Positions 38,601 through 51,018 of a DNA stretch of 64,000 nt are shown in pieces. This DNA is from Chrysomallon squamiferum. Taxonomy: Eukaryota > Animalia > Mollusca. The stretch spans positions 15,066,001 through 15,130,000 of the forward strand of contig CM022666.1 of assembly GCA_012295275.1 (NCBI GenBank), written 5' to 3'. The stretch's first letter is position 1. The number at the start of each line of letters is the position of its first letter. The position numbers and the translations under genes are program-made. A model generated the notes under the pieces. The model searched no databases. It was given only the letters and a program-made list of their open reading frames with translations, and was not told the DNA's origin.

Positions 38601-41600
38601 ACATTTCTAGAATGTTCCTAGCAATTTGAAAACGTTCCACTAAATTAAAACGTGTAGCAAACAGATAAAAACAGTACACATTAAACTGAGTCATGAACAG
38701 TAAATTTCTCTATTTAATATAATAATAATAATAATAATAATAATAATAATAATAATAATAATAATAATAATAATAATAATAATAATGATAACAATAATAA
38801 TAATAATAATAATAATAATAATAATGATAATAATAATAATACTAATAATAATAATAATAATAATGATAACAATAATAATAATAATGATAACAATAATAAT
38901 AGCAATAATAACAATAATAATAATGAAATTAATAATATTAATAATAATAATAATAATAATAGCAATAATAATAATAATTAAAGAAACCTTAAAATGGATA
39001 GATTTATGAAGCAGACATCACTAATACTCCTTTACAAAAAAAGGACATTTTAAATGTGGAATAAATAAATAAATAAATAAATAAATAAATAATAAAAATG
39101 TTGTTTTGCTGTTGATGGTGGCGATGGTGGATTTATTGGCATGGAAAACTGCGACCACCACGTTTCCAATGTTTTTTCCTATAATTTTATCATTTTAATC
39201 TATTCATCTACATTGCAGCTTCTTTTTTTTCCCCCTCTGTTATAATAAATTACAAGCAGTTATGATATCTGTGTATCATTGTTTCCCTGTATGAAAAATG
39301 CCACTCTTTCGTTTTGTCTTACTGCAAAATAATGGTTTATGTAAAACGGAAATATTTCAGACACCAAAGAAAAACCAACAAAAAAATATTTATGGTTTAT
39401 TTATTTATTTATTTATTTATTTATTTATTTATTTATTGTTTCAAAAAGCTCAAATTTTCCCAAGATTGTTTTTATTATTGTTATTCTTTATATTTTTTAT
39501 TTAATTTAACTAATTTATTTATTTATTTATTTATTTATTTATTTATTTATTTTATATTATTGTATTATTATTATCATAACTTTAATTTTTTTTTTTTTTT
39601 ATTTTTTTTTTTTTTATTTAACTGAATACAACAGATCATGTTTTTAATCCATAATCTTCCTTATTATCTTAATCTAGTTCCAGGCAAAGAAAGTAAAGAT
39701 GGTGAAAAGTAAGCTAAATATTTAAACATTTAGTAGCGTTCAGTGTGATGCACGTTATGCGACGAAATTTAAAAAATCTTTCTTTATTTCAAAATGCATT
39801 AAAAATACAATAAAAGAAAAGTAGGAGTGCAAAGTACTGTGGGAATAATTAACTTTAACATTGAATAAAACTGAATTTGAATCAAGATATTGAATTTCTA
39901 CTATATTATTTTTGTGTAAAAGTTTGAAAACTTGATTCTCTCTCTCTCTCTCTCTCTCTCTCTCTCTCTCTCTCTCTCTCTCTCTCTCTCTCTCTCGTTT
40001 TTCATTTCTTTTTGTTTTCATTTTGGTTATAGTTTATTTCATATTTCGCGTACATATAAACTTATATATTAATATTTAGCTGAAAATATATATAATTTGT
40101 TTGTTTTTTTAATTCGGTGTTTAGCACTAAAGAAACATACGACGATGGTAAGCATATGTTTATATATTATCACTGTATTAATTTATTCATTTCCTTTTTA
40201 ATAAGTAAGTAAAACTAAAATAAAATAAAACAACATTAAATAAATAAACAAATAAATAAATAAATAAATAAATAAATAAATAAATTCCACTGTAACATGT
40301 GAAAAAGATCACCAGCAGTTTATTGTTGTAAATATTGACATTCTTTTGTGTTTCTCAATCACAATATGCTGCTTTTTAATTAAGCTAATTGCTGGTAATT
40401 ATATATTATATATTGTATATTGTATATTACATATTACTGTTTATTGGTTGTTTATTGCTAACACTGTCTTTGTCGATTCGTGGAAATTGCCTTGAATTTA
40501 AGAACTTTTAAGTTGTTTTGTTTTTACCAAATTTTCCAATGAATTATATCTCACACACACACACACGCACACGCACACAGAGAGAGAGAGAGAGAGAGAG
40601 AGAGAGAGAGAGAGAGAGAGAGAGAGAGAGAGAGAGAGAGAGAGAGAGAGAGAGAGAGAGTCTTTGGATATCAGGGACGAATCATTTATTGTTATTGTTG
40701 TGGTTTTGTTGTTGTGGTTTTTTCATTATGTTTATATTCTCACATTTGTTTATTTGGTTTCGGTTGTTTGATAAACAAACAGTCACGTGATGTACTGAAC
40801 ACCTAGTTTACTTACGTCTGAAATGAACTTCAAGACAAATTTATTTTTATCTCGTTTCTTTCTTTATTTATTTATTTATTTATTTATTTATTTATTTATT
40901 GTCTTCTTCAGTTTTGTCAGGTGCAGACTCGAAAATGAAGTAAGTGAATTACGTGAAAAGATTAACAAAACAGAGTAACCGTTACTTATATTTTTTACAT
41001 TTATTTGCTTCTTTAAATCTTTATTAATATATGTATATGTAAATTAGTTGTTTTTTTATGTAAGCCGACCACTGTATATAACAGTGGACAAAATTGTATT
41101 GATTTGTTTGTTTATTTGTTTATTTCTTTCTTTAAATATATATATATATATATATATATATATATATATATATATAGAGAGAGAGAGAGAGAGAGAGAGA
41201 GAGAGAGAGAGAGAGAGAGAGAGAGAGAGAGAGAGAGAGACTTCTCTTGAAGTTACCATACTTATTGCGTCTTGTTTCTTTGTGAAGTGTGTTTTCTGTG
41301 TAAAATAAGAAATCTGAGCTGGTCTAGCTTATCTTGTTTTGTGATATATTTTAGTGTGTCACAGCCAGATGAATGTAAGTACACGCATGAGTTATTTTCA
41401 TTTAATATGCTTCCACGCATCATCACCAGTACAGTTTGTAATGAAACATATATTCTTTATTTTTATTTTAGTTTTTTAAATCACGAATATTTTTTTTTTT
41501 TTTGGAGTGGGGGGTCTTAATTTTATCTATATCTAAAAATATATATATATATATATATATATTTCATTTTAAGTTGCGACATTTGTCTTCATTATTATTA

Positions 41601-50600: not shown

Positions 50601-51018
50601 CACTGGAACAAATAATTACATCATCCTGACTGCGGTCAGTAAAAACACTCACAAAATGGGCGACATACAAATGATTATACATACTTGCTTGAGGTTTTAC
50701 TTTATTTTTATTTCAATATATTATTTTGTTTCATTTTATATTTTTCAAAAAAAAAAATTCAAGTTTATTTGCTGTTTTATATATATATATATATTTATTT
50801 ATATTTATTTATTTATTTATTTATTTATACTTTTTAGGGGGGAGGGGGGCTTATTCGTTTAGTTTTTATTTTATTTTTTTTTTTTTTTTTTTTCTGAACA
50901 TTAAATAAAAATTATTCATTGTGATATCAACCAGAAATTCACTTTAATGACAAATTATTTTATTTCACTTGTTAATTTCTACTGTTTTATTTCTATACAG
51001 AACGCAAATCTTCATCAT
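26615..51018 (+). CDS. Uncharacterised type-I transmembrane Ig-superfamily receptor (SP, 5 V-like Ig domains, TM, micro-exon-encoded tail), ~880 aa
   Basis: Exons: SP 26615-26660 (MSLRLYLLFLGFPLI), Ig 28072-28467, linker 29182-29217, Ig 29675-30073, linker 30795-30824, Ig 31236-31622, linker 33252-33281, Ig 33677-34081, Ig 36722-37105, stalk 37776-37808, TM 38166-38291, then 21 micro-exons 39678-51018. All extracellular introns are phase 1 and the joined frame is open. The terminal exon is uncertain. Confidence 0.8.
28072..28467 (+). CDS. Ig-like domain exon 1 of the receptor
   Basis: VTIKC...GNC...SFVQ...ETGDYGCQV; phase 1-1, 396 nt. Confidence 0.85.
29675..30073 (+). CDS. Ig-like domain exon 2 (frame not shown in the ORF track)
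   Basis: ITDKKISLNIQ...LTVRCTTSG...LVSCEP...SGFCNTG...VKPSDTGLYLCEVNF; phase 1-1, 399 nt. Confidence 0.85.
30198..30246 (+). mobile_element. Remnant terminus of a hAT (Charlie-like) DNA transposon
   Basis: CGGTCGTGTGCAAACTGCGGCCCGTGCGGC...TGGCCCGC resembles hAT-Charlie termini and follows TCTAGA, the Charlie target core. No partner end found. Confidence 0.45.
31236..31622 (+). CDS. Ig-like domain exon 3
   Basis: LFVRCSV...TVC...SGKC...SFVQIEL...DSGTYLCMV; phase 1-1. An alternative in-frame acceptor would start the exon at 31245. Confidence 0.85.
31759..32506 (+). mobile_element. Non-autonomous Tigger/pogo-family DNA transposon (internal deletion derivative, 748 bp)
   Basis: 23-bp TIRs CAGTGGTACCT(C/T)GACTTACGAGT (one mismatch) with TA on both sides. 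Contains a truncated transposase N-terminus from 32031: MDSKKVSAKNSAEKKRMMSIELKLELIEKYQRGVHVVDLVRQYERSTST (CENP-B/psq-type HTH). Confidence 0.9.
33677..34081 (+). CDS. Ig-like domain exon 4
   Basis: EGSPVQVTC...AKC...TGRC...DLSDSGDYSCSV; phase 1-1, 405 nt. Confidence 0.85.
35497..36470. repeat. (ATAGT)n pentanucleotide satellite, two blocks
   Basis: Near-continuous ATAGT/ACAGT/ATAGG units at ~35497-36115 and ~36225-36470. Confidence 0.95.
36722..37105 (+). CDS. Ig-like domain exon 5
   Basis: AGNTLEIKC...EGMC...GSFLQLKL...YDTGEYVCEI; phase 1-1, 384 nt. Confidence 0.85.
38166..38291 (+). CDS. Transmembrane exon of the receptor
   Basis: KQHRN-VTLSTIAALVAVSGVVVVMCFLG-RNTAEGVFFRKSLE; TAG acceptor, GTAATT donor, phase 1-1. 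Confidence 0.75.
39678..51018 (+). other. Array of ~21 coding micro-exons (5-31 nt) encoding the cytoplasmic tail
   Basis: Twenty have a pyrimidine tract + YAG and a GT(A/G/T)AG(T/C) donor; one (43783-43796) needs a GC donor. Coordinates are listed in the top finding. Confidence 0.75.

Follow-up and report, generated by a model that had tools for sequence, protein, structure and literature searches.

The intracellular tail of an immunoglobulin (Ig) receptor of the mollusc Chrysomallon squamiferum has probably been lengthened by repeated duplication of a two-exon block, and is likely spliced mostly as one fixed chain. We place the probability of this reading at roughly 0.68. The gene lies within a 64,000-nucleotide (nt) window of GenBank assembly GCA_012295275.1 (contig CM022666.1, positions 15,066,001 to 15,130,000, forward strand), and all coordinates below refer to this window. 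It is a single-pass receptor gene with five V-set-like Ig domains and about 900 residues. The gene model has a coding length of about 2,700 nt, of which about 375 belong to the tail. A sequence-only reading of the window had described the tail as a run of 21 micro-exons whose lengths alternate between 3n+1 and 3n+2, and had taken this alternation as a pointer to combinatorial splicing. The exons withstood re-examination; the alternation is better explained by how the tail grew.

The transmembrane (TM) exon and the tail comprise the following features:

38166..38291, plus strand: transmembrane exon; both ends spliced in an RNA contig; 19-residue Kyte-Doolittle mean 2.51.
39678..39708, plus strand: tail exon 1 (31 nt); its first 30 letters come after the TM exon in the RNA contig.
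40125..41374, plus strand: tail exons 2-4 (23, 28 and 20 nt), with a TYDDV motif in exon 2; predicted from splice sites and frame.
42084..50292, plus strand: tail exons 5-20, apparently eight copies of a two-exon block; intron homology at the same parity and a shared ACAG acceptor.
43783..43796, plus strand: tail exon 8 (14 nt), with a weak GCAATT donor, the least certain exon; strong acceptor score, no GT nearby.
51001..51018, plus strand: tail exon 21 (18 nt), the last predicted coding exon; splice sites and frame.
52285..52306, plus strand: candidate start of the terminal exon; a join with exon 21 would form TAA at the junction, and AATAAA lies near 52301.

All 21 tail segments are present where they had been placed, and each is directly preceded by AG. 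The donors that follow them are GTRAGT (17 exons), GTAAGC (two), GTTAGT (one, after 48448-48467) and GCAATT (one, after 43783-43796), so that 19 of the 21 read GTRAG. Exon lengths, their alternation, the sums of adjacent pairs and the translation were all reproduced. The TM exon ends in phase 1 and the exon lengths alternate; thus, the tail introns have phases 2, 1, 2, 1 in turn. The eight putative block copies each pair a 16-nt exon with one of 23, 14, 20, 5, 5, 20, 20 or 20 nt, at a spacing of 0.8-1.4 kb. The 14-nt length of exon 8 was set from the frame, its GC donor being a weak site. Both of the nearest strong acceptors downstream of exon 21 would complete TAA at the join; the acceptor at 51354 is an alternative that would also form the stop. 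A further candidate small exon at 52361-52381 (AG...GTAAGA) would begin with TAG if joined to exon 21 and may be non-coding. An extra 5-nt exon candidate at 46418-46422 was rejected, since its acceptor is AAG and its inclusion would disrupt the reading frame.

The splice-site density of the tail region is far above chance. The weights of our splice scan were generic frequencies, and conclusions rest instead on density and shuffle tests. Within 39500-51200 we counted GTRAGT donors that are preceded, at a distance of 3-35 nt, by a pyrimidine-rich YAG. There were 17 such pairs on the plus strand and none on the minus strand, while 300 dinucleotide shuffles of the same stretch averaged 1.4 and never exceeded 6. 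Two control stretches held 1 and 0 pairs on the plus strand, and 0 and 0 on the minus strand. Furthermore, 17 of the 22 GTRAGT within 38300-52600 fall at the end of a listed exon.

The joined exons form an open frame that is unlikely to be accidental. They are stop-free and in frame with the TM exon, whereas the other two frames contain many stops; the predicted chain is 375 nt long and encodes 125 residues. When bases were shuffled within exons, the whole chain stayed open in only 4 of 20,000 trials. Exons 9-21 by themselves, a set independent of where exon 8 is cut, stayed open in 101 of 20,000. Across the three frames these exons hold 7, 5 and 0 stops, and the one open phase is that of the upstream 16-nt exons. 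Their open frame requires a 3n+2 exon at the position of exon 8, or the joint loss of exons 7 and 8.

The tail appears to be built from a tandemly duplicated unit of two exons and two introns. Judged from sequence homology, this unit would be roughly 1.1 kb long, with one 16-nt and one 20-nt exon. Blastn aligned 45275-46087 with 46461-47278 (66% over 875 nt, E 9e-63), and further block pairs were found (49599-49790 with 50244-50432; 48228-48602 with 50087-50404). We also compared all 190 intron pairs after masking simple repeats and splice signals. The nine highest-ranking pairs were all of the same parity, with z falling from 32.5 to 4.1; the nominal P of about 0.001 for this ranking assumes independent pairs, which they are not, and its cut was chosen after the ranking was seen. 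Introns 11, 13 and 19 align end to end. The acceptors follow the same division: ACAG precedes all nine odd exons from 5 to 21, and only one of ten even exons.

Duplication of such a unit would produce the phase alternation by itself. Both ends of the block lie in phase 1 and its internal intron in phase 2; duplication or deletion of a whole block would therefore keep the frame, and half copies would not. Because only whole blocks keep the frame, strict alternation needs no further cause. Thus, what had been read as a signature of combinatorial splicing would be the necessary outcome of duplicating a phase 1-2-1 two-exon block, and strict phase alternation can arise without selection for splicing diversity.

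The block copies appear to have kept their splice sites and frame more than their protein sequence. Splice sites, length modulo 3 and the open frame are retained across blocks. Exon copies seem about as diverged as their introns: identity is 8/16 for exons 11 and 13 and 10/16 for exons 15 and 19, while global alignment of the introns that follow gives 72% for 11/13 (shuffled 56%) and 65% for 15/19 (shuffled 53%). Over six exon pairs, differences at codon positions 1, 2 and 3 number 17/33, 15/31 and 12/33. Since they are spread evenly over codon positions, no protein-level purifying signal is apparent in the blocks, although the frame is open. We dropped the stronger statement that exons evolve faster than introns, because local-alignment P values were inflated by AT-rich best segments and global alignments do not back it; with respect to exon versus intron divergence, the alignments support only 'no faster conservation'.

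The receptor gene is spliced and expressed. Four RNA runs from two studies were found for 28050-37150. One of them, X1, contains 0.19 of the words in that interval, close to its exon share, which is estimated at about 0.23. A 1,001-nt contig from X1 (depth 22.6) carries the last 30 letters of a 33-nt exon at 37776-37808, then an exact match to the TM exon, then 30 letters identical to 39678-39707. In this contig the TM exon is therefore spliced precisely to the first micro-exon and not to a terminal exon, as the sequence-only reading had predicted. The contig extends 308 nt beyond the TM exon, against a predicted chain of 375 nt, and under the full chain it would end inside exon 18. The other three of the four runs (X2-X4) yielded no contig matching the TM exon, which is no proof of absence.

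The predicted tail has a low-complexity sequence that changes character along its length. Residues 1-60, on the membrane side, are acidic, while 7 and 10 lysines or arginines per 20 residues occur across residues 81-120. There are two tyrosines, Tyr16 (TYDDV) and Tyr68 (DYGF), and a proline-rich stretch. In even exons 2 and 10 the tyrosines are encoded by the equivalent codon, and this shared position suggests that the ancestral unit carried a tyrosine motif. The tyrosine motif is a likely SH2 docking site, and the proline-rich stretch a putative ligand. The very basic end of the tail would bind acidic lipids or partners by charge. By analogy, the receptor would probably serve recognition at the cell surface and signal through its tyrosines, whether in immunity, in adhesion or in contact with symbionts.

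The structure of the blocks argues for mostly fixed inclusion. Single-exon skips shift the frame, as had been predicted, and loss of any one of exons 1-19 (19 of 21) leads to an early stop. The two exons of a block would thus lock each other, loss of either shifting the frame and truncating the tail. Nonsense-mediated decay acts on mRNAs with early stops, and the truncated mRNAs would probably trigger it. Splice sites and lengths modulo 3 would be maintained in this way while the coded residues drift. Since loss of one exon mostly cuts the tail short, it is simplest to suppose that the micro-exons are mostly all included. Pair-skipping would then be permitted as a by-product of the design of the unit.

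Several observations weigh against a fixed chain of duplicated blocks. Only one of the 21 tail junctions is seen in RNA, in one contig of one run, so that fixed inclusion is an inference. The contig ends 0-2 nt past an exon boundary in 5 of 42 single- or pair-skip models, three of which lack exon 8. As a sign of branching this is a weak hint and not diagnostic, because contigs also stop at variants or at low cover. Exon 8 itself has a weak donor and may often be skipped. Between the introns of exons 1-4 and those of the later blocks no clear homology is seen (best z about 3), so that the alternation in this part is explained only by assuming older duplications. Lastly, the signalling roles assigned to the tail motifs are analogies.

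Other uses of the same exons can be envisaged. Many different combinations of adjacent pairs could be left out, and a large repertoire of in-frame tails would result, as the sequence-only reading had proposed. Its arithmetic holds: none of the 19 adjacent-pair skips creates a stop, and 10,888 of 1,048,576 exon subsets keep the original frame stop-free. There is also a precedent in shrimp Dscam, where optional exons yield no fewer than 384 tail isoforms (PMC6851185). However, about 99% of subsets leave the original frame, the alternation is already explained by duplication, and the RNA, which shows one tail junction, reveals no such isoform. Coupled skipping of two exons also needs a coordination that symmetric exons would not, and the same gene has symmetric 30-36-nt micro-exons in its ectodomain. 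We regard such free pair-skipping as unlikely. Quite unlikely is its stricter form, a frame code in which a 36-nt block is split into two asymmetric exons so that only coordinated pair-skips give stable in-frame mRNAs. If true, it would yield hundreds of tails graded in length, charge and tyrosine content, with single skips cleared by decay, and splicing diversity would be built on exon pairs rather than on symmetric exons.

A length switch with few states is doubtful. Here, skipping of exon 8 or another single exon, or intron read-through, would produce short tails that keep the first tyrosine and lose the second along with the basic end. The weak GCAATT donor favors it, as do the 89-residue tail with a different end that results from skipping exon 8, the compatibility of the contig end with three models lacking that exon, and precedents in chicken BG and Daphnia Dscam (PMC5938342, PMC6851185). 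Yet exons 9-21 are open only in the frame of the full chain, which must then be the translated frame most of the time, and the early stops would probably be decay targets. It is very improbable that only the first few tail exons are used and that the distal blocks are duplicated, unused pseudo-exons. The lack of protein-level constraint in the blocks is what one would expect of pseudo-exons, and the RNA junctions seen reach exon 1 only; but the splice sites are intact while identity between flanking introns has fallen to 53-72%, an open frame is kept against the odds, and the contig runs 308 nt past the TM exon. A mostly fixed chain grown by block duplication remains our preferred reading.

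Upstream of the TM exon, the gene model comprises:

26615..26660, plus strand: predicted first coding exon, signal-peptide-like, with a phase-1 donor; sequence and translation.
28078..28467, plus strand: exon of Ig-like domain 1, whose acceptor could shift by a few codons; open reading frame (ORF), aligning with the other four domains, both cysteines common.
29182..29217, plus strand: 36-nt symmetric linker micro-exon, predicted from the splice scan and an in-frame join.
29675..30073, plus strand: V-set-like Ig domain 2 exon; Pfam ig/V-set below cut-off, and alignment.
30795..30824, plus strand: 30-nt symmetric linker micro-exon, predicted from the splice scan and an in-frame join.
31245..31622, plus strand: V-set-like Ig domain 3 exon; Pfam ig/V-set below cut-off, and alignment.
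33252..33281, plus strand: 30-nt symmetric linker micro-exon, predicted from the splice scan and an in-frame join.
33677..34081, plus strand: exon of V-set Ig domain 4; Pfam V-set at E 2e-05 with 25.1 bits, narrowly short of the cut-off of 26.
34326..34355, plus strand: predicted 30-nt linker micro-exon with a weak donor; splice scan and in-frame join.
36154..36183, plus strand: predicted 26-30-nt linker micro-exon, 3' end uncertain; sequence.
36722..37105, plus strand: V-set Ig domain 5 exon, acceptor 36722 or 36727; AlphaFold2, Foldseek and a match to Gigantopelta aegis P0022.
37776..37808, plus strand: 33-nt symmetric stalk micro-exon, absent from the list of the sequence-only reading; last 30 letters in the RNA contig.

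The ectodomain consists of V-set-like Ig exons joined by small linkers. Pfam V-set matches occur in four of the five Ig exons, all below the curated cut-off; the exon of domain 1 has no Pfam Ig match by itself. AlphaFold2 models domain 5 as all-beta with a predicted local distance difference test score (pLDDT) of 91.8, and the best Foldseek matches are JAML, CRIg/VSIG4 and VHH. Six symmetric 26-36-nt linker micro-exons lie between or after the Ig exons, and the one at 37776-37808 is seen in RNA. One gene thus has symmetric micro-exons in its ectodomain and asymmetric pairs in its tail. About 1 kb of degenerate TAGTA pentamer satellite (35490-36470) surrounds the micro-exon at 36154-36183. The intron after Ig exon 3 contains a short element (31756-32509) with inverted ends starting CAGTGGTACCT; a fragment within it resembles what we take to be the N-terminus of a pogo/Tigger-type transposase.

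The nearest named relatives are V-set proteins of the vent snail Gigantopelta aegis. phmmer gave E values of 1.9e-36 to P0001 (LOC121389408) and 3.9e-04 to P0016, and BLASTP 6e-16 to P0022 (LOC121386525). There were 18 representatives with E up to 0.001, and the best named full-domain matches were from G. aegis (two of seven looked up). In the Atlas, the first match was a V-set cluster at 0.95, with neighbors that include mostly-mollusc unnamed clusters. P0022, P0001 and P0016 have the same kind of V-set domain at 32-35% identity, and Ig domain 5 is 32% identical to P0022. Taken alone, relatives at this identity make a gastropod the likely source of the window. Like the receptor described here, P0022 has a TM segment and a tail with TYDDL (TYDDV here). 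Unlike it, P0022 has one such domain plus a second domain kind, and its tail of about 70 residues has four tyrosines, including the one in TYDDL, and no basic repeat. No TM segment was seen in P0001. The gene shares with the gastropod V-set Ig superfamily (IgSF) single-pass receptors of the LOC121386525 type a V-set fold, homology to named members, and a single TM segment followed by a tyrosine-bearing tail, the tyrosine lying in predicted exon 2. Full-length relatives were not found among 426 longer candidate proteins searched with domain 4, nor among 7,994 proteins scored with a 12-sequence alignment, both weak negatives. A search with P0001 recovered only P0001 and P0022, and a metagenome contig scan returned 485 pattern matches and no relative.

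Other features of the window lie outside the receptor gene. An intronless small GTPase ORF at 56705-57245, presumably of Rap2 type from its sequence, is interrupted near 56893 by a one-base frame break, which points either to an error in the assembly or to a pseudogene. If it is an assembly error, indels may affect other sites in the window. A tandem repeat of about 35 nt lies downstream of the GTPase gene at 58390-58660. Judged by their ORF translations, the exons at 400-4300 look like those of a mannose-6-phosphate isomerase gene, and the minus-strand exons at 14569-21500 like those of a multi-TM gene of the glycerophosphodiester phosphodiesterase (GDPD) family.

Known systems share parts of this architecture. 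FREPs and VIgLs are secreted proteins in which one or more IgSF domains precede a fibrinogen or lectin domain. The gene model has a different layout, in which the last Ig exon leads to a 33-nt exon and then to the TM exon; no whole-window Pfam scan was made. Nor does it have the Ig+FN3 layout of hypervariable Dscam: from the signal exon to the TM exon it holds five V-set-like exons that share one frame, and ORFs of FN3 size are absent. Crustacean Dscam is nevertheless an invertebrate Ig receptor with tail exons whose inclusion or skipping changes signalling motifs. In Penaeus monodon, seven optional tail exons give at least 384 tail forms, including frame shifts (PMC6851185). There, splicing is shown by transcripts and the ectodomain has mutually exclusive exon clusters; here, no exon clusters were seen, and the tail exons have apparently arisen as tandem copies.

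Schistosome micro-exon genes (MEGs) resemble the tail in their long run of tiny exons, long introns and fast-changing coded sequence. MEG exons are symmetric and account for the greater part of the coding sequence, and MEG products are either secreted or associated with glands (PMC4350168). In contrast, 20 of the 21 tail exons here are not 3n; they occupy about 375 of about 2,700 coding nt and are intracellular. Micro-exons elsewhere are compatible with fixed inclusion: of the micro-exons quantified in rice, over 70% are constitutive, and the share of 3n micro-exons there is only 40.7% (PMC6600660).

A close architectural parallel is chicken BG, of the butyrophilin family. Like the gene described here, BG genes encode an Ig V ectodomain, a TM exon and a tail of many small exons, with 13-36 such exons per gene that expand and contract (PMC4046983, PMC5938342). 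Their tails vary by splicing and by intron read-through, the latter shortening them (PMC5938342). BG has a single V domain and symmetric 21-nt exons (18 or 24 in some cases) spelling coiled-coil heptads, whereas we find five V-set-like domains, an asymmetric 16+20-nt unit and a low-complexity, proline-rich tail that is acidic and then basic. Because the exons here are asymmetric, skipping any one of them shifts the frame, which is the reverse of how MEG and BG genes are designed. The likeness is one of architecture, and no homology is claimed; by analogy, the locus would work like an expanding tail of BG type.

What is new here is the asymmetric two-exon repeat unit. Multi-micro-exon Ig tails and tail splicing diversity are already known. 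The proposal of diversity on the signalling side of an Ig receptor stands in so far as the reading frame permits it, but not as a new idea, since it is described for shrimp Dscam and chicken BG (PMC6851185, PMC5938342). In searches of titles and abstracts, mostly of openly available papers, we found no report of alternating-phase micro-exon-pair arrays in receptor tails. Gene predictors easily miss such tails, and mollusc immune-type receptors may consequently be annotated without their signalling ends. The locus suits a test of coupled-pair splicing, which, if true, would be a new route to signalling-side receptor diversity. Set beside BG, Dscam and the MEGs, it offers a natural case of a receptor tail probably grown by asymmetric exon-pair duplication, with exons down to 5 nt kept intact while their sequence drifts.

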